Numbered from the stretch's first letter, positions 32,017 to 59,272 are shown. The stretch is DNA of 64,000 nt from Patescibacteria group bacterium (GCA_041742375.1 JBGSIU010000044.1:2161-66160), one strand, 5' to 3'. Notes: generated from the letters alone by a model not told the origin. Translations and numbers: made by a program.

Positions 32017-32021
32017 ATTCT

Positions 32022-32822: not shown

Positions 32823-33839
32823 ATGAACATTAACGGTAAAAGCATTTTAGTGACTGGTGGAACAGGATCTTTTGGTAGAGAAGTAACTCAGGTTCTTCTC
32901 GAACAATATAAACCGAGAAAAATAGTGATATTTTCGCGGGACGAATATAAGCAATATCTTTTGAAAAATGAACTTGGGAGAAAATATGGAAAACGGCTCA
33001 GATTTTTTCTTGGAGATGTTCGCGACAAAGAAAGGTTAATGAGGGCATTTGACGGAATCGATATTGTTATTCACGCGGCGGCTTTAAAACAAGTTCCTGC
33101 GCTTGAATACAATCCGATTGAAGCGATTAAAACAAACATTAATGGGGCGATTAATGTGATCGATGTAGCAATCGAAAGGCAAGTTGAAAAAGTTATTGCT
33201 TTGTCAACCGATAAAGCTGTTCATCCAATAAGTTTATACGGTGGGACGAAGCTTGTTTCTGATAAAATGTTTATATCGGCAAGTGCTTACGCAGGAAACA
33301 AGAATATCTCGTTTTCTGTTGTCCGATACGGTAATGTAGCGGGAAGCAGAGGATCTGTTGTCCCCTTTTTTAAACATTTGATTGAACAAAAAGCAAAATT
33401 TTTTCCCATAACTGATTTTCGTATGACAAGATTTTGGTTGTCGCTTGAAAGAGCCGTGAGTTTGGTAATCGAAGCAATAAAAAACGGTCAAGGAGGGGAA
33501 GTATATGTTGCAAAATGTCCATCTTTTAAGATTATAGATTTGGCAAAAGCAATGGACAGCAAAATGGAAATAAGGGAGGTTGGCATTAGACCGGGAGAAA
33601 AACTGCACGAGGTGATGTTGACTGATGATGATGCGGCAAGAACCTACGAATATAAAAATTATTTCATCACTTATTACGCACTTGATTGGTGGAGCAAAAA
33701 GAAAATTATTCCGAAAGGCGGGAAAAAAATAAAGAATAGCTTTAATTATTCCTCCGGGACAAATAGTGTCTGGCTAGAAACTGCGGAAATAAATAAACAA
33801 TTGAAAAATGTCAAAATTGACAACCATAATAAACTGTGA
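32823..33839 (+). CDS. pseB: UDP-N-acetylglucosamine 4,6-dehydratase (inverting), PseB/FlaA1-type
   Basis: The full length aligns with PseB/FlaA1: 'ILVTGGTGSFG', 'SRDEYKQ', 'IHAAALKQVP', 'YGGTKL', 'VVRYGNVAGSRGSVVPFF', 'ITDFRMTRFW', 'GIRPGEKLHE'. Confidence 0.85.
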   Translation: MNINGKSILVTGGTGSFGREVTQVLLEQYKPRKIVIFSRDEYKQYLLKNELGRKYGKRLRFFLGDVRDKERLMRAFDGIDIVIHAAALKQVPALEYNPIEAIKTNINGAINVIDVAIERQVEKVIALSTDKAVHPISLYGGTKLVSDKMFISASAYAGNKNISFSVVRYGNVAGSRGSVVPFFKHLIEQKAKFFPITDFRMTRFWLSLERAVSLVIEAIKNGQGGEVYVAKCPSFKIIDLAKAMDSKMEIREVGIRPGEKLHEVMLTDDDAARTYEYKNYFITYYALDWWSKKKIIPKGGKKIKNSFNYSSGTNSVWLETAEINKQLKNVKIDNHNKL

Positions 33840-34978
33840 AAAATTATCCATACGGAAAACAATCAATAAGCCGTCATGATATTAAGGAAGTTGTGCGTGT
33901 TTTAAAATCAGATTTTCTAACACAGGGTTCTGAGGTGGATAATTTTGAAAAAAAACTTGCCAAAAATACCAATGCAAAATTTGCAGTTTGTTTTAATTCC
34001 GGAACCGCGGCCCTTCATGCGGCGTATTTTGCCGCAGGTATCGGCAAGAATGATGAATTCATAACATCTCCGATGACATTCGCGGCAACAGCAAATGCCG
34101 GTCTTTATCTTGGCGCGCGCCCTGTTTTTGTTGATATATTAACGAACGGGAACATTAATCCGGGTCTTATCGAAGAAAAAATAACTAAAAAAACAAAAAT
34201 AATTATTCCGGTTCATTATGGTGGGTTGCCCTGCGAAATGGTAGCTATTCAAAAAATTGCCCGAAAGCATAAACTGATTATTATCGAGGATGCTTGCCAC
34301 GCACTTGGAGCAAAATATAAAGACACAAAAGTGGGAGGTTGTGCATATTCTGACATGGCAGCTTTCAGTTTTCATCCTGTTAAACATATTACAACAGGGG
34401 AAGGCGGCGCAGTTACAACCAATAGCAAAGAGTACTATGAGAAAATGAAAATTTTCCGAACACACGGAATAACAAAAAAAACTTTCTCATCAAAAACAAG
34501 AAATGACGGAGATTGGTATTATGAAATGCAGCATCTTGGGTATAATTATCGCCTGACTGATTTTCAGGCGGCACTTGGGAGTTCTCAGCTCGAAAAACTG
34601 GATAAATATGTCAAAAAAAGAAGAGAAATTGCAATAATCTATCAAGAGAAATTTAAAAATAACAATTTTTTCGATCTTATTTCTGAAGAAAAAAATGTCA
34701 AGAATTCATTTCATCTTTTCCCGATTTTATTAAAAAATGTTTTGAGTCGAAAAATAATTTTTGAGAAGTTAAGAGAAAAAGGTATCGGGGTGCAAGTACA
34801 TTATATCCCAATATATTTTCATCCCTATTATCAAAGACTAGGATACAAAAAAGGTTTATGTCCAAGGGCGGAAGATTTTTACGAAAGAGAAATAAGTCTT
34901 CCTATGTATTTTTCACTAAGCGATAATGAAGTTGATCACGTAATTTCTATCATGCTTAAAGCTTTTAATAACATATGA
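33836..34978 (+). CDS. pseC: DegT/DnrJ/EryC1-family PLP aminotransferase, PseC-like
   Basis: 380 aa in the DegT family. It lies directly downstream of pseB, with an ATGA overlap. The N-terminus 'YGKQSISRHDIKEVVRVLKSDFLTQG' is typical of PseC-type enzymes. Confidence 0.7.
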   Translation: MKNYPYGKQSISRHDIKEVVRVLKSDFLTQGSEVDNFEKKLAKNTNAKFAVCFNSGTAALHAAYFAAGIGKNDEFITSPMTFAATANAGLYLGARPVFVDILTNGNINPGLIEEKITKKTKIIIPVHYGGLPCEMVAIQKIARKHKLIIIEDACHALGAKYKDTKVGGCAYSDMAAFSFHPVKHITTGEGGAVTTNSKEYYEKMKIFRTHGITKKTFSSKTRNDGDWYYEMQHLGYNYRLTDFQAALGSSQLEKLDKYVKKRREIAIIYQEKFKNNNFFDLISEEKNVKNSFHLFPILLKNVLSRKIIFEKLREKGIGVQVHYIPIYFHPYYQRLGYKKGLCPRAEDFYEREISLPMYFSLSDNEVDHVISIMLKAFNNI

Positions 34979-35982
34979 TAAGAATAGGCATTATTGGTTT
35001 TGGCTATTGGGGGCCGAATTTGGTCAGAAATTTTTCGCTTGTCGATGGTTGTTCCATCAAAATCGTGTCAGATCTGCGAAAAGACAGACTCGACCTTTTA
35101 AAAAGACAATATCCGGGTGTCGCAACTGTTAACTTGAGTGATAATGTTATAAACAATAAAAACATTGATGCGGTGGTTGTCGCGACTCCGGTTTCTTCTC
35201 ATTTTGATCTCGCGTCTGCTGCTTTGAGCCACGGCAAGCATGTTTTAATTGAAAAACCGATGGCAACATCGGTTGCGGAAGCCAAGATGTTAATTGATTT
35301 GGCGAAAAAGCAAAAGAAGATTTTAATGGTTGACCACACCTTCCTGTACGCCGGCGCGGTTCAGAAAATCAAGAGTCTAATTGATAAAAATGAGCTTGGG
35401 AATATTAACTATTTTGACTCGACGCGTATCAATTTGGGATTATTTCAAAAAGACGTCAATGTTTTATGGGATCTTGCCCCCCATGACATTTCGATTTTCA
35501 GCTATCTATTTAATAAAAATCCACTAAGTGTTCAAGCGATTGGTGTTTCACATCTGAAAAACGGCATCGAAGATGTCGCATACTTAACCCTCCGTTATCG
35601 ATCAGACCTAATTGCCCATTTTAATTGTTCCTGGTCCTCGCCAATTAAAATAAGAATGATGTTAATCGGAGGGGATAAGAAAATGATTGTTTATAATGAT
35701 ATGGAACCGACAGAAAAGGTTAAGGTTTATGATAGCGGTTATATATTGAAAACAGATGAAGACAAGAGAAAAATTTTGGTCGATTATCGCGTGGGCGACA
35801 TTTTTATCCCAAAAGTTGAAATACGAGAAGCACTGTTTGAAATGGCGAAAGATTTTATAAAATCGATAAATGCAGGGAGTGATCCGATTTCAAACGGCGC
35901 TCTCGGTTTAAAAGTTGTAAAAATATTAGAAATGTCCCAAAAATCAATAAAACAGCACGGAAGAGAAATTCCGTTTAAATAA
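34975..35982 (+). CDS. Gfo/Idh/MocA-family NAD(P)-dependent oxidoreductase (WbpB-like sugar dehydrogenase candidate)
   Basis: 'IGIIGFGYWGPNLVRN', 'EKPMATS' and 'DHTFLY' motifs. Confidence 0.8.
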   Translation: MIRIGIIGFGYWGPNLVRNFSLVDGCSIKIVSDLRKDRLDLLKRQYPGVATVNLSDNVINNKNIDAVVVATPVSSHFDLASAALSHGKHVLIEKPMATSVAEAKMLIDLAKKQKKILMVDHTFLYAGAVQKIKSLIDKNELGNINYFDSTRINLGLFQKDVNVLWDLAPHDISIFSYLFNKNPLSVQAIGVSHLKNGIEDVAYLTLRYRSDLIAHFNCSWSSPIKIRMMLIGGDKKMIVYNDMEPTEKVKVYDSGYILKTDEDKRKILVDYRVGDIFIPKVEIREALFEMAKDFIKSINAGSDPISNGALGLKVVKILEMSQKSIKQHGREIPFK

Positions 35983-35984
35983 TA

Positions 35985-36464
35985 ATGAAAAATGGTTCGC
36001 TTACGAGTCTTAATAATGTGTCTCTTGGAAATAATGTAAAAATATCGAAATTTGTAAATCTATACGGGTGCAAAATCGGCGATAATACAAAAATTGGCGC
36101 TTTTGTCGAAATTCAAAAAGGTGTTGTTGTCGGAAAAAACTGTAAAATTTCAAGTCATACATTTATCTGCGAAGGGGTTGAAATTAAGGATAATGTTTTC
36201 ATCGGACACAATGTTACGTTTATTAATGATAGATATCCCCGCTCAGTGAATGACATGGGATTCCTGAAAAGCGATAAGGATTGGAAACTAGAGAAAACAT
36301 TTATCAATAATAATGTTTCAATTGGTTCATCCGTTACAATTCTTTGTGGATTAACAATAAGTGAAGGATCAATGATTGGCGCGGGATCAGTTGTCACAAA
36401 AGATGTCCCACCTAAAACTTTAGTTATGGGAAATCCTGCGCGAGTTCGAAGCAAAATTAAATAA
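35985..36464 (+). CDS. Left-handed beta-helix (hexapeptide-repeat) N-acetyltransferase (WbpD-like)
   Basis: 159 aa with repeated [LIV]Gx4 hexapeptides. Confidence 0.75.
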   Translation: MKNGSLTSLNNVSLGNNVKISKFVNLYGCKIGDNTKIGAFVEIQKGVVVGKNCKISSHTFICEGVEIKDNVFIGHNVTFINDRYPRSVNDMGFLKSDKDWKLEKTFINNNVSIGSSVTILCGLTISEGSMIGAGSVVTKDVPPKTLVMGNPARVRSKIK

Positions 36465-36470
36465 TTAATT

Positions 36471-37568
36471 ATGAAACCTATTCCTTTTGCCGATCTGAAA
36501 AGACAATATATAGATATTAAAAGCGAAGTTTTGTTGGCTATAAAAAAAGTGTGTGAGGAAACGGCTTTTTCCGGAGGTAAATTTTCCGAAAAATTTGAAA
36601 AGGAGTTTGCGAAATATTCCGACGCAAAATATTTTTCCGGACTTAATAATGGGACAAATGCCATATTTCTTGCGCTTAAAGTTTTAGGCATTGGTTCTCT
36701 TGACGAAGTTATCGTTCCCACAAGCACGTTTATTGCAACTGCATCTGCCGTAAGCTGCACGGGGGCAGTTCCTGTTTTTGTGGACTGTGATCCTGACACT
36801 TGGGAAATTGACGCGGGTAAACTGGAAAAGTCTCTAACTAAAAAAACAAAAGCCGTGATTGGCGTACATCTCTATGGCCAGCCATTCGATGTCGATGTGG
36901 TAGCAAGAATATGCCGGAAACATAAATTATACTTGGTTGAAGATTGTGCACAGGCACATGGAGCAAAATATAAAAATATAATTGTCGGAGCATTTGGCGA
37001 AATGGGTTGTTTTTCATTTTATCCGGGTAAAAATTTGGGTTGTTATGGTGAAGGCGGCGGCGTTTTAACCAATAATAAAATATATTTTGAGCACATTACT
37101 AAATTAAAAAACCATGGGAGTACTTCAAAATACTTCCATGATGAAATTGGTTACAACATGAGAATGGAGGGGATACAGGGGGCAGTTTTAAGCGTAAAAC
37201 TAAAACATCTTGATAAATGGAATGCAAGACGCAAAGAAATTGCGGAAATATACCGCAGCTTGATAAAGAACCCAAAAATAAAAATGCAGTATCGGCCAAA
37301 GTGGGCAGATTCTGTCTTCCATTTATTTGTGGTCATTACAGAAGATAGAGACGATTTGAAAAAATATCTCGAGAAGCATAATATTTTTCCGGCGATGCAT
37401 TACCCGGTTCCGTGTCATTTACAGAAAGCATATAGTTTTTTAAAATATAAAAAAGGCGATTTTCCCAACACGGAATATTTGGCTGCGCATTGTTTGTCAC
37501 TGCCAATGTATCCGGAGCTAACTGACAACGAAGTTAAAAAAATTATTAAAATCATCAATCGATATTAA
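36471..37568 (+). CDS. DegT/DnrJ/EryC1-family PLP aminotransferase (WbpE-like)
   Basis: 365 aa in the DegT family. Confidence 0.85.
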   Translation: MKPIPFADLKRQYIDIKSEVLLAIKKVCEETAFSGGKFSEKFEKEFAKYSDAKYFSGLNNGTNAIFLALKVLGIGSLDEVIVPTSTFIATASAVSCTGAVPVFVDCDPDTWEIDAGKLEKSLTKKTKAVIGVHLYGQPFDVDVVARICRKHKLYLVEDCAQAHGAKYKNIIVGAFGEMGCFSFYPGKNLGCYGEGGGVLTNNKIYFEHITKLKNHGSTSKYFHDEIGYNMRMEGIQGAVLSVKLKHLDKWNARRKEIAEIYRSLIKNPKIKMQYRPKWADSVFHLFVVITEDRDDLKKYLEKHNIFPAMHYPVPCHLQKAYSFLKYKKGDFPNTEYLAAHCLSLPMYPELTDNEVKKIIKIINRY

Positions 37569-37571
37569 TAT

Positions 37572-38198
37572 ATGAAAACTAAACTGCTTATCTTTCCATA
37601 TAACGGCAATGGTTTGGAAGCCTTGGGATGCTTAGACGGAAATTACGAATTTATCGGGTTTATTGATGATGAATCAACTAAGCAGGGAAAGAAAAAAGAG
37701 GGATTCACGGTTTTTTCCCGTGAAGTACTGCAAAAATATCGAGAGGCAAAATTGCTGGCGGTTCCCGGTAGTCCGACGACATATTTAAATCGAAAAAAAG
37801 TGATTGCTAGTTTAAAAATACCCCAAACACGATTTGCCACGGTTATTCATAAAAACGCGTACATATCTCCTTTGGTAAAAATTGGGTTTAATGTTTTAAT
37901 TATGGCGGGGGTTGTTCTGACGAGCAATGCCATTATCGGGAATCATGTTTGTATTTTGCCAAACAGCGTTATCCATCATGATGTTGTGCTGGCTGATTAT
38001 ATACTTGTGGGATCACAGGTGGTCATTGCCGGATATGTAAAAATACACGATAATTGTTATATTGGCAGTCAAAGTTCTCTTATCAATCAGATAGAGATTG
38101 GTAAAAATTCTCTTGTTGGAATTGGATCGAACGTTATCAAATCTTTTCCTCCTAATTCAAGAATTGTTGGGAATCCTGCCCGATTAATAAATAATTAA
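37572..38198 (+). CDS. NeuD/PglD-family sugar N-acetyltransferase (hexapeptide)
   Basis: N-terminal Rossmann-like 'LLIFPYNGNGLEALGCLD...FIGFIDDE' and a C-terminal hexapeptide beta-helix. Confidence 0.75.
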   Translation: MKTKLLIFPYNGNGLEALGCLDGNYEFIGFIDDESTKQGKKKEGFTVFSREVLQKYREAKLLAVPGSPTTYLNRKKVIASLKIPQTRFATVIHKNAYISPLVKIGFNVLIMAGVVLTSNAIIGNHVCILPNSVIHHDVVLADYILVGSQVVIAGYVKIHDNCYIGSQSSLINQIEIGKNSLVGIGSNVIKSFPPNSRIVGNPARLINN

Positions 38199-38201
38199 GA
38201 T

Positions 38202-38217
38202 CCCCGCTTTCGCGGGG
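38202..38217 (+). terminator. GC-rich hairpin CCCCGC-TTTC-GCGGGG between the acetyltransferase and the GT2; possible terminator or attenuator lacking a U-tract
   Basis: A perfect 6-bp GC stem with a 4-nt loop in an otherwise AT-rich genome. Confidence 0.4.
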
Positions 38218-38225
38218 ACAAGCTT

Positions 38226-39155
38226 ATGGAACACAATATTAGCATAATAATCCCCATATATAATGAAGAGAAAGGTATCGATCGGCTTGTTAAAAATCTC
38301 AATGCATATTTTCAAAAGCACGCGAACTTAGAACCAGAAGTTATTTTTGTTGACGATGGATCAAGTGATAATTCGGTTAAAGCGATAAAAAAACTGAAAC
38401 ACGTAAATTATTCGGCAAAGCTTATCAAACTCACAAGAAATTACGGATCCCACTTGGCAATTCGTGCGGGGATACAAGTTGCCGCCGCGTCTGTGGTGAC
38501 GTTCATTTCAAGTGACCTTCAGGATCCGCTTTCATTAATCGGCAACATGTATGCTGAAATGAAAGAGGGCAATGATTTAATTTGGGCAAAAAGAAGAAAA
38601 ATCGAAAACAAATTTATCGCCAATTTTTCGACAAAACTTTATGCGAAATTAATGAAACTTTTTGTATTTTGTGATTTTCCCGAAAATGGATTCGATGTGG
38701 TTATGTTTAGCGATAAAATCAAAAATGAACTTAATCGAAATATTGAAGCAAACTCATCAATTTTTTTACAAATTATGAATATGGGTTTTCATAGCTCAAC
38801 AATTACATATGATAAAAAAGCGCGACAGATCGGCGGCTCAAAATGGAATTTCTCAAAAAAAATCAAATTATTAATCGATTCATTCGTGTCATTTTCTTAT
38901 GCGCCGATTAGGTTTGTGAGTGTGATGGGGCTAGTTCTTTCGACAGTGGGTTTTATCTGGGCGATATATATTTCCTTGAGGGCAATCATGTCAGGGAATT
39001 TAAATCCGGGATGGCCATCTTTAATTGCGATTTTAACCATTGGTTTTGGCGTGACCAATCTTTCGCTCGGGATTATCGCCGAATATTTATGGCGAACCCT
39101 AGATATTTCAAGAAAAAGAAGCGCCTTCTTAATCGATGAAATGATAAATCTATGA
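38226..39155 (+). CDS. GT2 polyprenol-phosphate glycosyltransferase with C-terminal TM helices (ArnC/GtrB/DPM1-like)
   Basis: 'ISIIIPIYNEEKGIDRLV...VIFVDDGSSDNS' and two C-terminal TM helices 'GLVLSTVGFIWAIYI...LIAILTIGFGVTNLSLGIIAEY'. Confidence 0.8.
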   Translation: MEHNISIIIPIYNEEKGIDRLVKNLNAYFQKHANLEPEVIFVDDGSSDNSVKAIKKLKHVNYSAKLIKLTRNYGSHLAIRAGIQVAAASVVTFISSDLQDPLSLIGNMYAEMKEGNDLIWAKRRKIENKFIANFSTKLYAKLMKLFVFCDFPENGFDVVMFSDKIKNELNRNIEANSSIFLQIMNMGFHSSTITYDKKARQIGGSKWNFSKKIKLLIDSFVSFSYAPIRFVSVMGLVLSTVGFIWAIYISLRAIMSGNLNPGWPSLIAILTIGFGVTNLSLGIIAEYLWRTLDISRKRSAFLIDEMINL

Positions 39156-40147
39156 AAAAACAAAAAATATTAATCACAGGTGGGGCCGGTTTTATCGGCT
39201 CTCACCTTGTCGATGAGCTTCTTGCAAAAAATTACATTGTGATCTGTTTAGATAATTTAGTAAATGGCTCTTTGAGTAATTTAAAAACTGCCCTGACTAA
39301 CCCAAATTTTCAATTTATCAAAGGAGATATTTTAAAAGAGCAGGACGCCTTAAAATCAACAAAAATAGTAGATATCGTGTTTCATTTGGCATGCCTTGGC
39401 GTTCGCCATTCGATCCATAGTCCGCTTGCGAATCATCGCGTGAATGCCGAAGGAACACTACGGATGCTTCAGGCGGCAAGAGTAAATAAAATAAAAAAAT
39501 TTTTTTATATCTCGAGTTCTGAAATCTATGGCGACGTGAAGCATTTCCCGATCGCGGAAGATTATGTCCCGGCACCAACTACGATATACGGCGCCAGTAA
39601 GCTTGCCGGCGAACATTATTCGATTGCATATAATAAATGTTACGGTTTAAAGACGACGATTCTGAGAATTTTTAATAACTATGGTCCGCGTGCCCATTAT
39701 GAAAGTGATGCCGGAGAAATTATTCCAAGAACAATTGTGATGGCCATATATAATAAACCACCAACGGTTTTTGGTGACGGGAAAACCACCCGTGATTATT
39801 TTTATGTGAGAGATACGGTGCGGGCGCTGGCTGACTTAATTAATTATCCCAATCTAACCGGTGAAATAATCAATATTGGCGCGGGGCTGGAAACGAAAAT
39901 AATCGATATTGTTAGAAAGATATTAAACTTGATGGATAAACAAAATCTTGAAATCATCCATGCCGGCAACCGCCCGGCTGATTTACCGAGATTGTGGGTT
40001 AATGCCAATAAATTTTATGAAATGACGCGTTTTGCACCGGCTTATGATTTCGAACAAGGCTTAAAAGAAACAATTGTTTATTATAAAAAATTATCTCAAG
40101 GAAAATTATTATATAAAAAAATTAAATTAAGAAACTGGGAGAAATAA
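39152..40147 (+). CDS. NAD-dependent nucleotide-sugar epimerase/dehydratase
   Basis: 'ILITGGAGFIGSHLVDELL', 'YGASKLAGE'. Confidence 0.85.
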   Translation: MKKQKILITGGAGFIGSHLVDELLAKNYIVICLDNLVNGSLSNLKTALTNPNFQFIKGDILKEQDALKSTKIVDIVFHLACLGVRHSIHSPLANHRVNAEGTLRMLQAARVNKIKKFFYISSSEIYGDVKHFPIAEDYVPAPTTIYGASKLAGEHYSIAYNKCYGLKTTILRIFNNYGPRAHYESDAGEIIPRTIVMAIYNKPPTVFGDGKTTRDYFYVRDTVRALADLINYPNLTGEIINIGAGLETKIIDIVRKILNLMDKQNLEIIHAGNRPADLPRLWVNANKFYEMTRFAPAYDFEQGLKETIVYYKKLSQGKLLYKKIKLRNWEK

Positions 40148-40148
40148 T

Positions 40149-41903: not shown

Positions 41904-41908
41904 AATAC

Positions 41909-42775
41909 ATGCAAAAATTAATTTTAGGTTCAGCTCAATTTGGACTGAATTATGGGATTAATAACAAAAACGGAAAAATTAAAATACCTGAAGTTTTCAA
42001 AATTCTTGATTACGCCATATCTCATGGAATTAAAGAAATCGACACGGCAACTGCCTACGGGAATGCTCAGCAAGTTATCGGTGAATATCTGAGAAAAAGA
42101 AAGCAGAGATTAAAAATCATAACAAAATGCAGTGGAACAAATGCTTCAGAGATAGAAAATGAAGTAAATACCAGTTTATCAAACCTAGGAATGGAGAAAA
42201 TCCACGGACTTCTAATTCACAAATTCGATAGTTATAAAAGAAATAAAGAAATATATAAAAAATTAATCGCATTAAAAAGAGAAAAATGTGTTGATAAAAT
42301 TGGTTTCTCTCTATATTTTCCGAAAGAAGCAGAATATTTGTTAAAACAAAAAATACCCATTGATATTTTGGAAATTCCGTATAACCTTTTTGACAGAAGA
42401 TTTGAGGTTTTGTTTAAAGAGTTTAAACGTAAAAAAATTAAAATTTACGCACGATCTATTTTTTTACAGGGACTTTTTTTTAAGAAAGAAAATGAGCTTG
42501 GAGTTTTTTTCAAGAGGATGGGAGACAGAATAAAATCTCTAAATGAAATTGCGTATAAAAATAGTTTGCCGCTTTCAGTAATTTGTCTTAATTTTGTTCA
42601 ACTAAATAAAAATATAGATAAGATATTGGTTGGGGTTGACAGCTTGGACAATCTAAAAGAAAATGCTGAGGCATTCAATGCAGTTAAAAAAGTAAAACGG
42701 ATATATAATGATTTGCTATGTCTAAAATTAGATAACGAAAAAATTATACTTCCTATTAATTGGGAAAAAACATGA
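41909..42775 (+). CDS. Aldo/keto reductase family oxidoreductase
   Basis: 'LILGSAQFGLNYGINNKNGK...IDTATAYGNAQQVIGE'. Confidence 0.65.
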   Translation: MQKLILGSAQFGLNYGINNKNGKIKIPEVFKILDYAISHGIKEIDTATAYGNAQQVIGEYLRKRKQRLKIITKCSGTNASEIENEVNTSLSNLGMEKIHGLLIHKFDSYKRNKEIYKKLIALKREKCVDKIGFSLYFPKEAEYLLKQKIPIDILEIPYNLFDRRFEVLFKEFKRKKIKIYARSIFLQGLFFKKENELGVFFKRMGDRIKSLNEIAYKNSLPLSVICLNFVQLNKNIDKILVGVDSLDNLKENAEAFNAVKKVKRIYNDLLCLKLDNEKIILPINWEKT

Positions 42776-43548
42776 AAATAAAAAATTTAGCAATTATTCA
42801 AGCTCGAGTTAGGTCAACAAGGTTGCCGGGAAAAGTGTTGCTGAAAATTTTTGACAAAACAATTCTTGAACATGTCGTAAGCCGTATTAAAAAATGTAGA
42901 TTAGTTAATCTTGTTGTCGTTGCAACAACAACAAATAGTGCTGATTCAAAAATAGCGTCTTTATGTAAAAAAAACAAAATCCCCATTTACCGAGGAAGTG
43001 AAGAAGATGTGCTGGACAGATATTATCAAGTGGCAAAGCTATATCACGCAAAAAATATTATTCGTATCACCTCGGATTGCCCATTGATAGACCCAATAAT
43101 AATTGATGATGTAATTAACGCTCATCTGAAATACAAAGTTGATTACACGTCAAACACTCTTCTCGAAAAATTTCCGGACGGAGAAGATATAGAGATTTTT
43201 AAATTTGCGACGCTTGAAAAAGCCTGGGTAAATGCAAAACTTAAATCAGAAAGAGAGCATGTTACGCCATATATGAGAAAACATTGTGAAATTTTTAAAC
43301 TTCATAGTGTTGGAGCTAAAAAAGATTATAGTGGAAAAAGATGGACACTTGATGAAGCAAAGGATTTTTTATTTATTGAAAAAATATATAAATATTTATA
43401 TAAAAATAGCAATTATTTCGGAATGAAAGAAATTTTGAAGTTATTATATATACGCCCCGAACTAGAAAGAATAAATTCAAATATTACCAGGAATGAAGGC
43501 TATCTCAAATCTTTGCAAAACGATAAAATAGTGAAAAATATATTATGA
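42772..43548 (+). CDS. Cytidylyltransferase of the SpsF/FlmC (CMP-KDO synthetase-like) family
   Basis: 'LAIIQARVRSTRLPGKVLLKI'. The ATG at 42772 gives an ATGA overlap with the upstream stop; the ORF-track start at 42760 is TTG. Confidence 0.7.
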   Translation: MKIKNLAIIQARVRSTRLPGKVLLKIFDKTILEHVVSRIKKCRLVNLVVVATTTNSADSKIASLCKKNKIPIYRGSEEDVLDRYYQVAKLYHAKNIIRITSDCPLIDPIIIDDVINAHLKYKVDYTSNTLLEKFPDGEDIEIFKFATLEKAWVNAKLKSEREHVTPYMRKHCEIFKLHSVGAKKDYSGKRWTLDEAKDFLFIEKIYKYLYKNSNYFGMKEILKLLYIRPELERINSNITRNEGYLKSLQNDKIVKNIL

Positions 43549-44855
43549 ACAAAACGCAAAAATTATACGAAGAGGCGAAGAAAATAATTCCCGGAGGTAC
43601 TCAGCTTTTGTCAAAACGCCAAGAGATGTATGCTCCGGGATTGTGGCCGGCATATTATAAAAAAGCTAAAGGTTGCGAGGTTTGGGATCTAGATGGAAAA
43701 AAATATTTAGACATGAGTTCAATGGGTATTGGTTCATGTATCCTGGGCTATGCCGACCCAGATGTTAACAGGCAGGTAAAAAGAGCAATTGATAAAGCTT
43801 CGATAACCACATTAAACTGTTTTGAGGAAGTTGAATTGGCAAAAATTTTGCTTGACCTTCATCCTTGGGCAGAAAAAGTCAGATTTGCGAGGTGTGGTGG
43901 TGAAGCGATGGCCATTGCGGTTCGAATTGCACGAGCAAAAACAAAGAAAGATGTTGTTTTATTTTGTGGCTATCACGGATGGCATGATTGGTATCTTTCG
44001 GCTAATTTAGCGGACGATAAAAATCTTGACGGTCATCTGCTCGCCGGTTTGAATCCTCTGGGTGTGCCGCGAGGACTTAAAGGAACAGCAATTCCTTTTC
44101 AATATAATAATGCGAAAGAATTTATAAGAGTTTTTAAAGAAAATATAAATAATGTAGGGGCAATTATTCTTGAGCCGATTAGAAATATTTACCCACACAA
44201 AGAATTTATCGACAAGATTCATACAGTCTGCCTTCAATATTCAATTCCGTTGATTGTCGACGAAGTTTCAACCGGATTCAGGCTTTGTCTTGGCGGCGCA
44301 CATCTTATTTTGGGCATTAAACCAGATATCGCGGTCTTTGCCAAAGCCATGAGTAACGGTTTTCCCATGGGAGCAATCATTGGGAAAAAGAATGTTATGA
44401 ATATCGCTCAGGATACATTCATAAGCAGTACATACTGGACTGAAAGAATTGGCCCAACTGCGGCAATTGCCACCATAAGTAAAATGAAAGCCCGTAAGGT
44501 AGATTCTCATTTAAAAAAGATTGGAGAATTAATCATGGAAGGCTGGAAAAAGGCAGCTAAAAAAAATAATATCAAAATTCATATTTCAGGATTTGCAACT
44601 CTTTCCCACTTTGATTTTGTTTGCGAGAACAAACTTGCGGCAAAAACATTTTTTGTGCAGGAAATGTTGAAAAAAGGATTTCTTGCAACAAACGGATTTT
44701 ATCCTTCGTTTGCTCATAAGGAAAAGCATGTGAAACGATACCTTTCAGCTTTAAATTTAGTATTTATCGGATTATCCGCTTCTCTTAAAAAAAGAGATTT
44801 GGCAAAAAGACTAAAGGGTCAGGTTTGTCAATCCGGATTTCAAAGATTAAATTAA
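43545..44855 (+). CDS. Class III PLP aminotransferase (glutamate-1-semialdehyde aminomutase-like)
   Basis: 436 aa with 'GYADPDVNRQVKRAI', 'VDEVSTGFRL' and 'AKAMSNGFPMGA' (PLP lysine region). Confidence 0.8.
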   Translation: MNKTQKLYEEAKKIIPGGTQLLSKRQEMYAPGLWPAYYKKAKGCEVWDLDGKKYLDMSSMGIGSCILGYADPDVNRQVKRAIDKASITTLNCFEEVELAKILLDLHPWAEKVRFARCGGEAMAIAVRIARAKTKKDVVLFCGYHGWHDWYLSANLADDKNLDGHLLAGLNPLGVPRGLKGTAIPFQYNNAKEFIRVFKENINNVGAIILEPIRNIYPHKEFIDKIHTVCLQYSIPLIVDEVSTGFRLCLGGAHLILGIKPDIAVFAKAMSNGFPMGAIIGKKNVMNIAQDTFISSTYWTERIGPTAAIATISKMKARKVDSHLKKIGELIMEGWKKAAKKNNIKIHISGFATLSHFDFVCENKLAAKTFFVQEMLKKGFLATNGFYPSFAHKEKHVKRYLSALNLVFIGLSASLKKRDLAKRLKGQVCQSGFQRLN

Positions 44856-44858
44856 ATT

Positions 44859-45935
44859 ATGCTTGAAATAGTTGAAAAAAAACATCGTAATTTCAATAAA
44901 ATGTGGAATTCCTATCTCCAAACCAATCCGACGGTTTCCTGGCGATATTTAAATGACTGGATTGTCTACCAAAAAGAGTATTCAAAATCGTTTCAAAAAG
45001 ACTTATCGTTTTTGATTAAAGAAGGACAGAATGTTTTAGCAATTTGCCCTTTGCTGATAGAGAATAATAATTCACATTTTCAAGCTTCATCAGGGGATGA
45101 TTATATGCCGTCGCCCGATGTTTCAATGAAATATGACAAAAAATTCAGAAAAAAAATAGAAAATTTTTGTTTTTACCAAATAGATCATTATGCGAAAACA
45201 AAAAAAATTAAAAAAATAAAGATGATGACAGATCCTTGTTCACAGAATTGGGATTTTAATCATTTAACGCAATACGGTTTTCTTGATTCGTCAATCGCCA
45301 CGGAAATTATAGATTTACGTAATTCAGTTTCTGAGATAAAAAGTTCCTTTAGGTCAAGTTATAAATCAATTATTAATCAATCATCAAAAATATATCAAAT
45401 TAAAATAATCGATTGTAAAAATCCGGAATATCAAATTCATGAAGAATATAGAAAATTACACCATAAATCAGCCGGCAGAATTACCAGAAATATAAAAACT
45501 TTTGATCTGCAGTTTGAATTGTTAAAAAAAGACAACGCGATGCTTATAGGTTTAATGTTTGAAAAGAAATTTATTGCCTTCAGCTATTTTTTCCATCATA
45601 ATAGAAATATTTATTATGCATCGTCTTCCGACAACCCCAATTTTAAAGTAAAAGTACCAATTGAACACCTAATCATTTGGTCGGCGATTGAATATTACGT
45701 AAACCGAAAGTTTTCAAAAATGGAGATTGGTTGGCAGCAATTCGGTCCCCAACTTTTTGATTTTCCATCGAACAAAGATATTAATATTTCCTTTTTTAAG
45801 CGCGGATTTGGAGGATCAACAGTTTCTCTATTCCGAGGGGTTAAATATTACGAAACAGGCTTGATGAAAAGAGAAATTAATGAGCAATCAGAAAAAATAA
45901 TTCAGTTATATGAAAAAACAAAACGTAAAAAATAG
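44859..45935 (+). CDS. Hypothetical protein, possibly a FemAB-like/acyl-CoA N-acyltransferase fold
   Basis: 358 aa, soluble, no strong motif recognised. Assigned by context only. Confidence 0.3.
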   Translation: MLEIVEKKHRNFNKMWNSYLQTNPTVSWRYLNDWIVYQKEYSKSFQKDLSFLIKEGQNVLAICPLLIENNNSHFQASSGDDYMPSPDVSMKYDKKFRKKIENFCFYQIDHYAKTKKIKKIKMMTDPCSQNWDFNHLTQYGFLDSSIATEIIDLRNSVSEIKSSFRSSYKSIINQSSKIYQIKIIDCKNPEYQIHEEYRKLHHKSAGRITRNIKTFDLQFELLKKDNAMLIGLMFEKKFIAFSYFFHHNRNIYYASSSDNPNFKVKVPIEHLIIWSAIEYYVNRKFSKMEIGWQQFGPQLFDFPSNKDINISFFKRGFGGSTVSLFRGVKYYETGLMKREINEQSEKIIQLYEKTKRKK

Positions 45936-46629
45936 TCCGGAAAAGTGGTACGAAAATTCATATCAGGAAATGGGTGATTCCGCTCAAAGGAAATACCCAA
46001 ATGAAGAATTGATCAGATTTCTAGGTCGGGATTTTTTTGGAACAAACAAAAAAGTCAGGCAAAAAATTAAAATGCTTGAAGTTGGTTGTGGAATGGGAGC
46101 AAATTTATGGCCGATTGCTCGCGAGGGATTCAGCACTTACGGGATTGACATTTCAGAAAAATCAATTAAATTAGCGAGAAAATATCTTATGTCTTGGGGA
46201 GTAAATGCCGATTTAAGAAAAGCGAACATGGTCAAACTTCCATACAAACAGAATTTCTTTGAGGTTGTCTTTGACGTATTTTCGTCTTATTGTTTAACAA
46301 CGAAAGAATACGAAATTTTTTTACATGAAGTCAGAAGAGTTCTTAAAAAAGGAGGGAAATTTTTTTCCTACACTCCTTCTGTAACGTCACAAGCATTTAT
46401 CAATTATTTGCCATCTGAAAAAATTGATGAGTTTACAATAAATGGTATTAAAAGAAAAACCTCCCCTTTCTATGGAAATGATTATCCATGTCGTTTCACC
46501 AATCAATTTTATCTTGCAAAAAAGCTTAAAGAAAATAATTTTAAAATAGAATATTTAGAAACAGTGTCCAGAAGTTATAATTCTCAATCGGAGAATTTTG
46601 ATTTTCTAGTTGTTGTTGCAATTAAATGA
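45910..46629 (+). CDS. Class I SAM-dependent methyltransferase
   Basis: 'MLEVGCGMGANLWPIAREGFSTYGIDISEKSIKLARK'. Confidence 0.75.
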   Translation: MKKQNVKNSPEKWYENSYQEMGDSAQRKYPNEELIRFLGRDFFGTNKKVRQKIKMLEVGCGMGANLWPIAREGFSTYGIDISEKSIKLARKYLMSWGVNADLRKANMVKLPYKQNFFEVVFDVFSSYCLTTKEYEIFLHEVRRVLKKGGKFFSYTPSVTSQAFINYLPSEKIDEFTINGIKRKTSPFYGNDYPCRFTNQFYLAKKLKENNFKIEYLETVSRSYNSQSENFDFLVVVAIK

Positions 46630-46663
46630 AAAAAACACATATATTATCCGTTGTGTGAATAAT

Positions 46664-47344
46664 ATGAAAAATAATATTCTTATCATTGCCGCTCATCCGG
46701 ATGATGAAGTTTTAGGCTGTGGTGGAACAATTGCGAGATTGTCGTCTGAAGGACAGGAAGTCAATGTTTTGATTTTGGGTGAAGGAATTACCGCAAGAGA
46801 CAGAAGACGAAACTCAGCAAAAAGAAAAAAAGAGATATGGACTCTGCATAAGCAAACGGATAAGGCAAATTTACTTCTCGGGGTAAAGAAAGTCATAAAT
46901 CTTGGTCTTCCCGACAATAGATTTGATGAACTTCCGCTTATTGAAATCGTGAAAAAAATTGAAGAAGTGAAAAATAAAATTAATCCAAAAGTTATTTTTA
47001 CCCACTATAGAAATGATTTGAATATAGACCACAGGACAACATACAGAGCAGTTATAACTGCAACACGACCGATTAAAGGAGAACTTGTCCAAGAAATATA
47101 TTCTTTTGAAACAATTTCATCCACTGAATGGAATTTTCCGCAAACATTTTCACCAAACGTTTTTTTTGATATTTCAAAATTTATCGATATCAAAATAAAA
47201 GCCATGGAGCAGTATCTAAGCGAAATCAAGAAAAACATCCATCCGCGCTCTTCAAGAGGAATAAAACTCGAAGCCGAAAGTCATGGAATTAAAACTGGCT
47301 TCGATTTTGTCGAGGCCTTTGAAGCAGTTAGGATCATGAAATGA
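46664..47344 (+). CDS. PIG-L/LmbE-family N-acetyl-sugar deacetylase
   Basis: 'ILIIAAHPDDEVLGCGGTIARL'. The ATG at 46664 is preferred; the ORF-track start at 46610 overlaps the upstream gene. Confidence 0.8.
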   Translation: MKNNILIIAAHPDDEVLGCGGTIARLSSEGQEVNVLILGEGITARDRRRNSAKRKKEIWTLHKQTDKANLLLGVKKVINLGLPDNRFDELPLIEIVKKIEEVKNKINPKVIFTHYRNDLNIDHRTTYRAVITATRPIKGELVQEIYSFETISSTEWNFPQTFSPNVFFDISKFIDIKIKAMEQYLSEIKKNIHPRSSRGIKLEAESHGIKTGFDFVEAFEAVRIMK

Positions 47345-48042
47345 ATACTATTTTGATTGTCACTATTAAATCTTGGAACATAAAAAATGCGCGAATTTTA
47401 AAACAAAAATTGAGTAAAAAGATAAAAGTAGAGATAATAACCGAAAAAGACGGATTAACGATTGAAAAAGTAAAAAAAATAGCCCCAAAATACATTTTTT
47501 TCCCTCACTGGTCGTGGATTGTTCAAAAAGAAATTTACGAAAACTTTTTATGTGTCAATTTCCATGAAACAGATTTACCATTTGGCCGTGGTGGAAGTCC
47601 CCTGCAAAATTTAATTTCGCGAAAAATTTATAAAACAAAAATCACAGCCCATAAGATAACCAAAGAAATTGACGCAGGGGATATTTATCTTCAAACGGGA
47701 ATAAACATCAAGAGAGGATCAGCACAAGAGTTGTTTTCGAAAATATCTAAAATCATTTTTTTCAGAATGATAACCGAAATTTTAGAAAAAGGCCTTTATC
47801 CTGAACCGCAAAAAGGGAAAATCGTTATTTTCAAAAGGCGAAAATCAGAAGAAAGCAATTTGGCAGAATTTAACGGAAAAAGTCTAAATAATTTATATGA
47901 TTTTATCCGTATGCTCGATGCCGAAGGATATCCAAAAGCGTTTATTAAATTAAATAATATGAAAATTCTTTGCTCTGATGTAAAATACGCTCATAATTCC
48001 CTTTTGGGAAAATTTGAAGTAGTCAAAAATGAAACAAATTAA
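47341..48042 (+). CDS. Formyltransferase-family protein (Fmt/PurN-like catalytic domain)
   Basis: 'VNFHETDLPFGRGGSPLQNLI' matches the HxSLLPxxRG formyltransferase signature. Confidence 0.65.
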   Translation: MNTILIVTIKSWNIKNARILKQKLSKKIKVEIITEKDGLTIEKVKKIAPKYIFFPHWSWIVQKEIYENFLCVNFHETDLPFGRGGSPLQNLISRKIYKTKITAHKITKEIDAGDIYLQTGINIKRGSAQELFSKISKIIFFRMITEILEKGLYPEPQKGKIVIFKRRKSEESNLAEFNGKSLNNLYDFIRMLDAEGYPKAFIKLNNMKILCSDVKYAHNSLLGKFEVVKNETN

Positions 48043-49078
48043 GATTGGCAACAAGACAATAAACGAAAATTCTCCGGTATATTTTGTGGCAGAAATGTCG
48101 GCCAATCATTTGCAGAAATATGACCTGGCTGTTGAAACGATTCATGCCATGAAAAAAGCGGGGGCTGACGCAGTTAAGCTTCAAACCTACACCCCTGATA
48201 CAATAACTCTTGACTGCGATAATAAATATTTTACACTCCATCAAGGCACAATTTGGGACGGACAAAAATTTTATGAGCTATATAAAACAGCATACACGCC
48301 ATGGGCTTGGCACTCGAAGCTTCAAAAAGTTGCCCACAACCTTGGTATGGAATTTTTTTCCACACCGTTTGACGAATCTGCAGTTGATTTTTTGGAAAAA
48401 TTAAAAGTTCCCGCATATAAAATTGCTTCTTTCGAAATTGTCGATATTCCCTTAATTGAAAAAACTGCCTCAAAAGGTAAACCCATGATAATTCCAACCG
48501 GTGTCGCTGGGATTTCTGATATTGCAGAAGCAGTCGAAGCATGCAGGCGTCAAGGAAACGATCAAATAATCCTTCTCATCTGCTCGTCATCATATCCTGC
48601 TTTGCTCGAAGAGATGAATTTAAAAACATTGCCGAATATGGCGAGTACTTTCGGAACTCTAATCGGTTTATCCGACCATACACTTGGGCAAACCGTTTCA
48701 ATTGCTGCAGTCGCGCTTGGAGCAAAAATGATAGAAAAACATTTTACCCTAGATAAGAAGCTTAGCGGTCCAGATTCAGCTTTTTCCTTAGAGCCAAAAG
48801 AGTTTAAAGAGATGGTTACGGCTGTTAGAGAAGCTGAAAAGGCATTAGGAAGAGTAACGTATGAAATAACTGATAAGAAAAGGAAAAACCGCGAACTTTG
48901 TCCCTCTCTTTTTGTGTCAGAAAATGTAAAAAAAGGAGATATTTTAACAAATAAAAATATTCGGTCCGTGAGACCGGGATTTGGTTTGCCGCCAAAATAT
49001 TTAAGCCAATTATTGGGTAAAAAAATGCGTTTCAATTTAAAAAGGGGCACGCCTCTTAAATGGGAGCATGTAGAATAA
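48029..49078 (+). CDS. NeuB-family nonulosonic acid synthase (pseudaminic acid synthase PseI-like) with a C-terminal SAF domain
   Basis: 'IGNKTINENSPVYFVAEMSANH...AGADAVKLQTY', 'IGLSDHTLG' and C-terminal 'IRSVRPGFGLPPKY'. Confidence 0.85.
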   Translation: MKQIKIGNKTINENSPVYFVAEMSANHLQKYDLAVETIHAMKKAGADAVKLQTYTPDTITLDCDNKYFTLHQGTIWDGQKFYELYKTAYTPWAWHSKLQKVAHNLGMEFFSTPFDESAVDFLEKLKVPAYKIASFEIVDIPLIEKTASKGKPMIIPTGVAGISDIAEAVEACRRQGNDQIILLICSSSYPALLEEMNLKTLPNMASTFGTLIGLSDHTLGQTVSIAAVALGAKMIEKHFTLDKKLSGPDSAFSLEPKEFKEMVTAVREAEKALGRVTYEITDKKRKNRELCPSLFVSENVKKGDILTNKNIRSVRPGFGLPPKYLSQLLGKKMRFNLKRGTPLKWEHVE

Positions 49079-49093
49079 AAACCTTCTATTTAT

Positions 49094-49585
49094 ATGTTGT
49101 CTATAAATCATACTATTATCCGTACAGTCACGAAAGATGATTCGCAATTAATTTTGAGCATAAGAAACGATAAAGAGTTACGTAAATTTTCTTTTAACGA
49201 CAAAAAAATATCTAAACAAGCTCATAAAAGATGGTTTGATAAAATGATCTCAGAGGAAAATAATATCCATTTAATATTAGAATATAATTCTAAAACAGCC
49301 GGACTCATTCGTTTAGATATATTAAATATAGATAAAAAATCTGCTCTTGTAGGAATTATTGTAATTGTAAAAGAATTTAGAGGGAAGGGATTAGGAAAAA
49401 TTCTTTTTAATGAGGCAATTAAAAAGCTTCGTGAAACATTTCCCAATATAAAAAGCATTAAAGCATATGTTTTAACAACGAATGTAAAATCAATGAATTA
49501 TTTTTTAGCCCTAGGTTTTAAAAATAAAAAAAGTGTGTTAAGAAAAGGTAAAAGTGCAATCGAATATGAACTTACAAATATATGA
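49094..49585 (+). CDS. GNAT N-acetyltransferase, PseH-like
   Basis: 163 aa GNAT fold ('VGIIVIVKEFRGKGLGKILFNEAIK...KAYVLTTN'). Lies between the NeuB-family gene and the CMP-synthetase gene. Confidence 0.6.
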   Translation: MLSINHTIIRTVTKDDSQLILSIRNDKELRKFSFNDKKISKQAHKRWFDKMISEENNIHLILEYNSKTAGLIRLDILNIDKKSALVGIIVIVKEFRGKGLGKILFNEAIKKLRETFPNIKSIKAYVLTTNVKSMNYFLALGFKNKKSVLRKGKSAIEYELTNI

Positions 49586-50295
49586 ATAAAATATTGTTGA
49601 CAATTTGTGCACGAGGTGGGTCAAAAGGTGTTAAAAATAAAAATATAAAAAATTTAAACGGTTCTCCTTTAATTTACTACACGATTCAACAAGCACGAGA
49701 ATGGGGAAGAGCTAAACACATTGTGGTCAGTACGGATTCGGAAAAAATCGCAAAAATAGCAAAAACTTGCGGAGCTGAAGTTCCGTTTTTACGACCAAAA
49801 GAGCTTGCTGAAGATAAAAGTCCAAAATTACCAGTCATTCGCCACGCACTTCTGGAATGTGAAAAAATATATCGTGAAAAATATGATTTTGTTGTTGATT
49901 TGCAGCCGACATCGCCCGTGAGGAAAATTAAAGATTTAAAAAATTGCTTAAAGCTTTTTCTTAAAGCGAAACCGCACATGCTTATCAGTGTCTCAAATTC
50001 AGACAAAAATCCATATTTCAATTTAGTTGAACAAGTTAACAGAATGGAAATTCGTCTGTGTAAAAACGCCGACAGACAAATAACCAGACGTCAGGATGCG
50101 CCAAAAATTTATGCAATTAACGGATCGATTTACATCTATGACAGAAGTTATCTCCTGAAAAAGGAAAATCTTTCACCGATTAGCGACAAAACTGTCATAT
50201 ATCAAATGGATGAATACTCTTCAATTGATATAGATAATGAAATTGATTTCAGATTTGTTGAATTTTTAATTAAAGAAAAATATATTTCTATATAG
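49582..50295 (+). CDS. CMP-nonulosonate synthetase (acylneuraminate cytidylyltransferase family, NeuA/PseF/LegF-like)
   Basis: 'ILLTICARGGSKGVKNKNIKNLNGSPLIYYTI'. Confidence 0.8.
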   Translation: MNKILLTICARGGSKGVKNKNIKNLNGSPLIYYTIQQAREWGRAKHIVVSTDSEKIAKIAKTCGAEVPFLRPKELAEDKSPKLPVIRHALLECEKIYREKYDFVVDLQPTSPVRKIKDLKNCLKLFLKAKPHMLISVSNSDKNPYFNLVEQVNRMEIRLCKNADRQITRRQDAPKIYAINGSIYIYDRSYLLKKENLSPISDKTVIYQMDEYSSIDIDNEIDFRFVEFLIKEKYISI

Positions 50296-51153: not shown

Positions 51154-51180
51154 AAATTATACCAATATTTATAAAAATTA

Positions 51181-51834: not shown

Positions 51835-51840
51835 ATTAAT

Positions 51841-54494: not shown

Positions 54495-54512
54495 TTTCCT
54501 CGAGTAATTAAA

Positions 54513-54572
54513 AATTAATATCAATTTTATGTTGATGAATAAGTTTATATCAGTATAATATTGATATTAATT
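54513..54572 (+). promoter_or_regulatory. Nested inverted repeats (AATTAATATCAAT ... ATTGATATTAATT, inner ATATCA-gtataat-TGATAT) containing a TATAAT box, upstream of the second NeuB gene
   Basis: A perfect 13-bp inverted repeat with an inner 6-bp inverted repeat. TATAAT at 54553-54558. Confidence 0.45.
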
Positions 54573-54580
54573 AAGCGTAA

Positions 54581-57811: not shown

Positions 57812-57821
57812 AACTACAAAT

Positions 57822-59271: not shown

Positions 59272-59272
59272 C

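Follow-up and report, generated by a model that had tools for sequence, protein, structure and literature searches.

How is the synthesis of pseudaminic acid (Pse) completed in a locus that has no gene for PseG, the UDP-sugar hydrolase of the pathway? The question is raised by a stretch of 64,000 nt from a Patescibacteria group bacterium (GCA_041742375.1 JBGSIU010000044.1:2161-66160), hereafter the window, in which an earlier note had described a Pse-type core between positions 32,823 and 50,295, composed of PseB, PseC, a PseH-like GNAT acetyltransferase, a NeuB-family synthase and a CMP-nonulosonate synthetase. All of the genes named there were found where it placed them, on the + strand; they are referred to below by the position of their first nucleotide, and their coordinates are collected in Table 1. 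PseG is generally treated as an obligatory step in Pse synthesis. The locus keeps every recognisable Pse enzyme except this one in a single very large cluster, together with a second nonulosonate pathway.

The pseudaminic acid core

The 61 open reading frames (ORFs) of the window were scanned, with the NCBIfam equivalog cut-offs as the criterion for family assignment. PseB, PseC and PseI all exceed these cut-offs, and are full length and free of frameshifts. The identification of 32823 as PseB, previously put forward on the basis of its alignment with FlaA1, is borne out both by the TIGR03589 model and by the alignment of residues 4-325 of 338 to the Helicobacter pylori enzyme (PDB 2GN4, 346 bits), in which the catalytic STDK and YGGTK (YGxTK) motifs of FlaA1, and with them the Asp-Lys and Tyr-x3-Lys residues, are kept; the FnlA model gives 228 bits, against a cut-off of 730. 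The DegT aminotransferase that was said to follow it lies above the PseC cut-off, and the four other DegT paralogues in the window reach 252-309 bits on the same model, TIGR03588. The numbers of these two models had been interchanged: TIGR03589 describes PseB and TIGR03588 PseC. Similarly, the synthase at 48029 has the Pfam NeuB and SAF domains with which it had been credited, and scores as PseI over NeuB. It is 50-64% identical to synthases adjoining PseB, PseC or PseG in related loci, and its top homologues, where named by their sources, are pseudaminic acid synthases.

The assignment of 49094 as a PseH-like GNAT also stands, PseH being its best family despite a score below the cut-off. It matches the Campylobacter jejuni PseH structure 4XPK with E=8e-7, and is 29-36% identical to GNATs that adjoin, or are fused to, PseG or PseI in relatives. 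The PseH model, TIGR03585, is narrow, since the PseG-fused GNATs of L002, L008 and L011 (L numbers denote the loci of the comparison described below) score 28-44 bits on it; that of L010 scores 91 bits. Judged by its sequence, then, this is a genuine Pse-type core.

Absence of PseG from the locus

The PseG model TIGR03590 matched none of the 61 ORFs. Five that were poorly assigned were rescanned against NCBIfam at E<=5, again with no PseG match: two were weakly Glycos_transf_1-like, one weakly Capsule_synth-like and two belonged to no family. A custom PseG hidden Markov model (HMM) was made from seven PseG domains of related loci, six of them above the NCBIfam cut-off and one, from L010, below it at 117 bits; it recovered the held-out PseGs of L006, L007 and L012 at 208-239 bits. 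When this model was run, with filters off, on the stop-to-stop segments of all six frames of the window, the best score was 9.9 bits (E=0.026), to a GT4 glycosyltransferase gene, and therefore neither PseG nor a recognisable remnant of it is present there. A Logan contig (SRR28170473) identical to the window over 60834-64000 reaches 3042 bp further to the right; this extension holds the remainder of a methyltransferase and two proteins of around 500 aa, and PseG was not found in it. Exact searches of metagenome and viral contigs with the last 53 bases of the window gave no match, nor did exact look-ups of the proteins at 61802-63121 (439 aa form) and 2074-2994; genes identical to those of the window were seen on short Logan contigs of the same run. 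The earlier observation that no PseG is evident near the Pse genes is thus upheld by TIGR03590 and a validated custom HMM, across the window and 3 kb beyond. On these scans the gap is real at the level of the locus, over a contiguous 67 kb. No description of PseG-less Pse clusters, or of a PseG substitute, was found in the literature.

Several proteins of the window were considered as the source of the missing activity and were rejected or found to be unsupported. A PseG hidden in 28272, 30047, 14255, 18090 (on the - strand), 60382 or 61802 was dismissed, as these gave no NCBIfam PseG match at E<=5 and only noise with the custom HMM. The PIG-L de-N-acetylase and the formyltransferase upstream of PseI both co-occur with PseG in L003, L008, L009, L016, L043 and L063, and in L008 a single protein fuses PseG, PseH and a formyltransferase. 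A role for the YfcE-type phosphoesterase at 58636 is not supported: it has a sole PseI-adjacent homologue, in L005, where a PseG fragment is still found, and its chemistry is unlike that required, being pyrophosphate and not glycosidic cleavage.

PseG in related loci

The comparison, anchored on PseI, comprised 32 loci from species-representative genomes, 80 from metagenomes and the contexts of exact protein matches. PseG was counted in a set of 20 non-redundant loci with a PseI-type synthase of at least 42% identity and around 10 kb visible on either side. Fifteen of them have it at no more than 10 kb from PseI; the remaining five (L015, L034, L036, L070 and L077), which belong to different lineages, do not. 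Because five of the 20 fully visible loci are without it, the lack of a PseG near PseI is a minority state, seen in about a quarter of neighbourhoods, and not a rarity. Fusions of PseG to a GNAT occur in L002, L010 and L011, and to a GNAT and a formyltransferase in L008. In L005, from a complete Oceanirhabdus genome, PseI is followed by a 111 aa fragment that matches PseG (11059-11391, 81 bits) and may be a truncated or decayed copy.

As about a quarter of PseI neighbourhoods, in different lineages, are without PseG, we think it likeliest that the window holds an intact Pse-type module within an exported-glycan locus, and that the gene for PseG, be it canonical or divergent, lies at another site of the genome; we would put the chance of this at about even. 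We do not think that the PseG step is bypassed. Several points weigh against this explanation. The placing of PseG elsewhere is argued from a frequency and not observed, every other Pse step lies within one very large locus, and the nearest relatives by PseI identity, L036 (81%), L034 (72%) and L037 (66%), are likewise without PseG within 10 kb. These three and L038 share synteny to the right, with PseG seen in none of them, and the lineage could be truly PseG-less. Furthermore, the PseH and PseF assignments fall below the curated cut-offs, and the Pse product and the expression of the genes are predictions.

The absence of PseG from 67 kb would also fit a locus in which Pse is never finished: PseB and PseC might feed UDP-linked 6-deoxy-L-altrosamine to a glycosyltransferase, with PseI using another hexose, or a PseG-less module might be decaying. 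PseB and PseC lie 14 kb from PseI, with several amino-sugar genes between, and no bona fide PseB was found near PseI in the closest relatives, L036 and L037. However, the Pse genes PseB, PseC and PseI are all intact and far above their cut-offs, genes overlap from start to stop codon as in an operon under selection, and the set of PseI, GNAT, PIG-L and formyltransferase is conserved across distant lineages. An unfinished pathway consequently seems improbable to us.

The second nonulosonate module

It had been suggested that the PseG step might be supplied by the NeuC-like enzyme at 55634, which would then do double duty and remove UDP from the Pse precursor as well. This is the only protein of the window above the cut-off for a nucleotide-sugar hydrolase family (TIGR03568), and it lies in the same + strand gene block as the Pse genes. 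However, it adjoins the second synthase, at 54584, and it is assigned to the predicted legionaminic/neuraminic acid (Leg/Neu)-type module of that synthase because synthases of this type (NeuB2) and NeuC stand side by side in most of around two dozen related loci. NeuC-type enzymes hydrolyse with inversion at C2, which is unsuited to the Pse precursor; on a sugar of L-altro configuration this would yield the 5-epimer of Pse, and not the substrate expected of a PseI scoring 484 bits. Moreover, in L036 and L037 PseI is present and both NeuC and PseG are absent from the locus. A second role for this enzyme is therefore very improbable indeed, and it is best regarded as the conserved partner of the second synthase.

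The usual company of the NeuB2/NeuC pair consists of a homologue of 49582, a DegT aminotransferase like 59273 and a PglD- or hexapeptide-type acetyltransferase, often with HisF/HisH/WbuX acetamidino genes nearby. In the window a PglD-family protein (37572) and the DegT at 59273 are present, and 39152 scores 185 bits on the LegB model (cut-off 475); NCBIfam family scans recognised no PglF-like retaining dehydratase in the window. Leg, N-acetylneuraminic acid (Neu5Ac) and other isomers are indistinguishable as the product of this module from sequence alone. The acetamidino genes are separated from the second synthase by a radical S-adenosylmethionine (SAM) enzyme at 53109, a candidate nonulosonate C-methyltransferase, with homologues in L017/L069 (41% identity) and L021 (25%).

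The second synthase probably starts at ATT 54584 and not at TTG 54665, the first ATG, GTG or TTG. Upstream of the TTG, the frame continues through the conserved IAEAGVNHNG motif, which a start at that codon would lose, and aligns with the N termini of homologues back to 54584; the TTG form scores 378 bits on TIGR03569, against 413 for the form starting at ATT. An AT-rich spacer of 90 bp with a TATAAT-like box precedes this gene (54495-54700 region).

Two cytidylyltransferases are encoded in the window. The one at 49582 was correctly recognised as a member of the CMP-nonulosonate synthetase family, but its placement in the Pse pathway is the less likely one: it falls short of the PseF cut-off, its best PDB matches are CMP-Neu5Ac synthetases (6IFD, 117 bits; 1EYR, 87 bits), and wherever a NeuB2/NeuC locus shows a cytidylyltransferase, this is nearly always a homologue of 49582. 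The SpsF/FlmC-type enzyme at 42760 is the better CMP-Pse candidate: besides the low PseF score of 49582, many PseI loci (L002-L004, L007, L015, L036, L044, L054, L066 and L077) have a homologue of 42760 and no other cytidylyltransferase. Only one NeuB2/NeuC locus, L074, has such a homologue. From gene context it is likelier that 42760 is the CMP-Pse synthetase and that 49582 serves the second synthase. A practical correction follows, namely that the place of PseF is often taken by a cytidylyltransferase of the SpsF/FlmC type.

The GT-B protein U439

The last gene of the nonulosonate block encodes a protein of 439 aa, here called U439, from a rare family: 59 cluster representatives were found at E<=1e-3 among 1.84 billion proteins. 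Homologues of 28-35% identity directly follow PseI, with overlapping start and stop codons, in L036 and L034; L037 and L038 have theirs within the corresponding block, of which it is always the last gene. All four loci are without PseG. U439 might accordingly be an Epimerase_2-related nucleotide-sugar hydrolase that has displaced PseG in an uncultured, probably small-genome lineage, which would make for a PseG-independent route to a Pse-type sugar. The number of NeuC and U439 genes together equals that of nonulosonate synthases in each of five loci, and in the window, L036 and L037 the role of transferase could fall to a distinct, KpsS-like protein.

The protein itself is about as similar to 2-epimerases as to PseG or to glycosyltransferases. 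The window's U439 matches no Pfam family, so that the threshold of PF02350 (Epimerase_2) is not reached; among 44 aligned members there are weak Pfam matches to Epimerase_2 in 23 (best 3.7e-15), to Glyphos_transf in ten and to Glyco_transf_4 in ten. With hhalign, the profile comparison gives 97.8% to NeuC, spanning both domains (E=1e-12), 97.2% to PseG, 88.7% to GT4, in the C-domain only, and 44% to Capsule_synth. U439 shares with the Epimerase_2 enzymes (WecB, NeuC, LegG) and with GT-B proteins of the PseG/MurG type the GT-B fold, a GxPxxD linker, an S...E nucleotide-binding motif and a C-terminal DGxxxxR. It differs from both in that the HP/HR motif has SSG in place of its His, the acidic residues of the N-domain are not invariant, and some members are fused to transferase domains.

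Against a hydrolase, the invariant residues are all in the nucleotide-binding C-domain; a DDxG...E / EHG motif in the N-domain is only 60-85% conserved, with just Asp117 and His144 left in the degenerate version of the window, and the N-terminal His motif of PseG is unaligned. The relatives P0133 and P0134 are fusions, one with TPR and sulfotransferase-like domains (871 aa) and the other with a GT2 domain and an additional region at the C terminus (1125 aa); such partners would suit transferases of glycan assembly. Foldseek ranks GT1 transferases, MurG and epimerases about equally. A clear PseG is present alongside remote members (60-88 bits) in L003/L046/L048, L007, L054 and L016, and the five supporting loci represent one syntenic lineage and are not independent. 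We therefore regard a displacement of PseG by U439 as rather unlikely. Because of the C-domain-only invariance, the degenerate N-domain motif, the transferase fusions and the remote members beside PseG, U439 is more likely to be a glycosyltransferase than a hydrolase, perhaps one that transfers Pse in concert with the KpsS-like protein at 60382. Homologues of the latter are found in L036, L037, L019/L020 and L079-L081.

Genes between PseC and PseI

The 15 kb separating PseC from PseI had been interpreted as heavy tailoring of the nonulosonate, which holds for the part that recurs with PseI (the PIG-L, the formyltransferase and the trio 41909-44855), but not for 34975-38198 or for 38226, a polyprenyl-phosphate GT2. 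The four genes of 34975-38198 probably form a separate branch making a UDP-2,3-diacetamido sugar. The best match of the first is the archaeal UDP-GlcNAc 3-dehydrogenase (NF040723), such an enzyme set constitutes a WbpB/E/D-type route to a 2,3-diacetamido sugar, and the first three genes are 82, 73 and 72% identical to those of a relative, L038. The last, a NeuD/PglD-type acetyltransferase, could instead serve the Leg-type module. An N-methylated amino sugar is suggested by the fusion at 40149, which shares 64% identity with an incomplete gene of L036.

The trio is found in distant lineages, in L009, L018/L070 and L033, and, with a cytidylyltransferase like PseF237, in L017/L069; homologues of the FemAB-family protein and the methyltransferase that follow it are found in L007 and L018/L070. 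The PIG-L and formyltransferase genes lie beside PseI in L003, L008, L009, L016, L036, L037, L043 and L063. Such tailoring is tied to Pse by fusions, including a PseG-PseH-formyltransferase (L008 5573-7933, 787 aa), a PIG-L-GNAT (L036 8772-9968, 398 aa) and a formyltransferase-GNAT (L003 8779-9993, 405 aa). The name of PDB 1ZGH, 'methionyl-tRNA formyltransferase', is probably wrong for its family, which sits inside nonulosonate clusters. As the PIG-L, formyltransferase, GNAT and trio recur beside PseI, the product is likely to be a modified Pse, with a free amine or an N-formyl group. This agrees with mass spectrometry of Ca. Kuenenia, in which a deacetylase and a formyltransferase of a nonulosonate cluster were linked to CMP-nonulosonates whose amine is free or formylated (bioRxiv 10.64898/2026.04.20.719630).

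Setting of the locus

Table 1. Predicted genes and gene groups of the locus, in positions of the window
Feature	Position	Strand	Supporting evidence
Wzm-like permease	31168-32016	+	NCBIfam galactan/teichoic-acid export models, weak
Wzt ABC ATPase	31968-32786	+	NCBIfam galactan/teichoic-acid export models; 214 bits to TagH-type model
PseB, inverting UDP-GlcNAc 4,6-dehydratase	32823-33839	+	TIGR03589 483 bits (cut-off 408)
PseC aminotransferase	33836-34978	+	TIGR03588 512 bits (cut-off 423)
Gfo/Idh/MocA dehydrogenase, hexapeptide acetyltransferase, DegT, NeuD/PglD-type acetyltransferase	34975-38198	+	NF040723 157 bits (below cut-off); TIGR03570 160.6 bits (cut-off 160.8)
ArnC/PgfS-like polyprenyl-phosphate GT2	38226	+	NCBIfam, below equivalog cut-off
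RmlB/LegB-like short-chain dehydrogenase/reductase (SDR; dehydratase)	39152-40147	+	NCBIfam, below equivalog cut-off
DegT-SAM methyltransferase fusion, 584 aa	40149-41903	+	NCBIfam, below equivalog cut-off
Trio: aldo-keto reductase, cytidylyltransferase 42760, class-III (GSA-like) aminotransferase	41909-44855	+	Family scans; recurs beside PseI
SpsF/FlmC-type cytidylyltransferase, 262 aa	42760-43548	+	PDB 6OEW 145 bits
FemAB-family protein and SAM methyltransferase, candidate N-acyl/aminoacyl and methyl tailoring	44859-46629	+	TIGR04421 105 bits (below cut-off)
PIG-L de-N-acetylase	46610-47344	+	Pfam PIG-L 94 bits
1ZGH-type formyltransferase	47341-48042	+	Formyl_trans_C_2 56 bits; PDB 1ZGH 239 bits; Asn/His/Asp motif present
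PseI, pseudaminic acid synthase	48029-49078	+	TIGR03586 484 bits (cut-off 340); NeuB model 295 bits
PseH-like GNAT N-acetyltransferase, 163 aa	49094-49585	+	TIGR03585 71 bits (cut-off 93)
CTP_transf_3, NeuA/LegF-like CMP-nonulosonate synthetase	49582-50295	+	TIGR03584 (PseF) 143 bits (cut-off 206)
Acetamidino (N-acetimidoyl) module: WbuZ/HisF-like, HisH, WbuX/PseA-like amidotransferase	50299-53064	+	TIGR03572 269 bits (just below cut-off); TIGR01855 203 bits; TIGR03573 362 bits (cut-off 203)
B12-binding radical SAM enzyme	53109-54494	+	B12-rSAM family matches, all below cut-off
Second nonulosonate synthase (NeuB/LegI type), 347 aa form	54584-55627	+	TIGR03569 413 bits (cut-off 399.65)
NeuC/LegG-type hydrolysing UDP-HexNAc 2-epimerase	55634-56785	+	TIGR03568 400 bits (cut-off 236)
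ATP-grasp ligase, SDR, YfcE-type metallophosphoesterase (58636), DegT	56792-60376	+	Family matches
DegT aminotransferase	59273-60376	+	52-58% identity to aminotransferase of Leg-type loci, 68% in L034
KpsS-like Capsule_synth protein, candidate nonulosonate glycosyltransferase	60382-61824	+	Pfam PF05159 39 bits
U439, rare GT-B protein, 439 aa	61802-63121	+	Last gene of nonulosonate block

Nearly all genes, from around 2 kb to 63 kb, are on the + strand, with frequent overlaps of stop and start codons; the G+C content is 0.31-0.38 across the window, and the source genome is from an uncultured organism with around 34% G+C. The Pse region comes directly after the Wzm/Wzt pair, predicted to effect ABC-transporter-dependent glycan export. 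The left half of the window holds GT4 and GT2 glycosyltransferases, polyprenyl-phosphate types among them. Between 2991 and 28275 there are unusually many polyprenyl-phosphate GT2 enzymes and GT-C-like membrane proteins, the latter comprising four PMT_2-like (one weak), two DUF2079 and one PIG-V-like; this density points to several lipid-carrier-dependent, extracytoplasmic glycosylation steps. The locus as a whole, of more than 60 kb, reads as a dual-nonulosonate, ABC-transporter-exported surface glycan cluster. The nearest named relatives of its PseI come from metagenome-assembled genomes of Bacteroidetes and Woesearchaeota (61-63% identity), and many genes of the modules resemble those of candidate-phyla-radiation (CPR) loci.

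A proposed pathway

With an unlinked PseG as the preferred explanation, the following route can be envisaged. Starting from UDP-GlcNAc, PseB and PseC would produce UDP-4-amino-4,6-dideoxy-beta-L-AltNAc, the 4-amino group of which would be N-acetylated by the GNAT at 49094, as in the PseH step. A PseG from another genomic site, postulated from the frequency of such arrangements, would release UDP, and PseI would condense the free hexose with phosphoenolpyruvate, the Pse product then being activated by the SpsF/FlmC-type enzyme at 42760. The PIG-L protein and the 1ZGH-type formyltransferase may replace an N-acetyl group, leaving the amine free or formylated, with further decoration by the FemAB protein, the methyltransferase and the reductase/aminotransferase trio. 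In parallel, the second, Leg/Neu-type module (54584, the NeuC at 55634, 49582, the DegT at 59273 and the acetamidino genes of 50299-53064) would produce a different nonulosonate.

Comparison with known systems

Pseudaminic and legionaminic acids are mimics of sialic acid on bacterial and archaeal surfaces, and their pathways are targets for drugs and vaccines. If an unlinked PseG fills the gap, the window represents another, unusually rich, nonulosonate cluster of uncultured microbes. Should U439 prove to fill it, a known reaction would have gained a new enzyme, and caution would be due wherever Pse production is predicted by screening genomes for the six canonical genes. In either case, what is described here is a modest gap in a known pathway and not a new system.

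The closest point of reference is the CMP-Pse pathway of C. jejuni and H. pylori (PseB, PseC, PseH, PseG, PseI and PseF, with PseA and HisH/HisF homologues). The locus shares with it equivalog-level PseB, PseC and PseI, a GNAT in the position of PseH, and, likewise nearby, a PseA/WbuX-like amidotransferase with HisH/HisF homologues, an arrangement like that at Cj1314c-Cj1316c of C. jejuni. In contrast to those systems, PseG is missing from the locus, the probable CMP-Pse synthetase is of the SpsF/FlmC and not the PseF type, and there are extra PIG-L, formyltransferase, FemAB and reductase/aminotransferase genes. The setting also differs, being an ABC-transporter glycan locus here and a flagellin glycosylation island in C. 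jejuni and H. pylori.

The second module resembles the UDP-based legionaminic acid pathway of Acinetobacter, Legionella and many CPR loci of the present comparison, in which PglF/E/D-like enzymes are followed by LegG, LegI and LegF. Shared with it are the NeuB (413 bits) and NeuC/LegG (400 bits) enzymes, a NeuA/LegF-like synthetase, a DegT aminotransferase (52-68% identity), a PglD-family acetyltransferase and the acetamidino genes, whereas the PglF-like retaining dehydratase of that pathway was not recognised in the window. Finally, the cluster of Ca. Kuenenia stuttgartiensis (SugarBase preprint, 10.64898/2026.04.20.719630) has, as here, a deacetylase and a formyltransferase among its nonulosonate genes. 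That cluster is described as Leg-related and its chemistry is known by mass spectrometry, whilst here the pair flanks a PseI-type synthase and its products are predicted from the genes.

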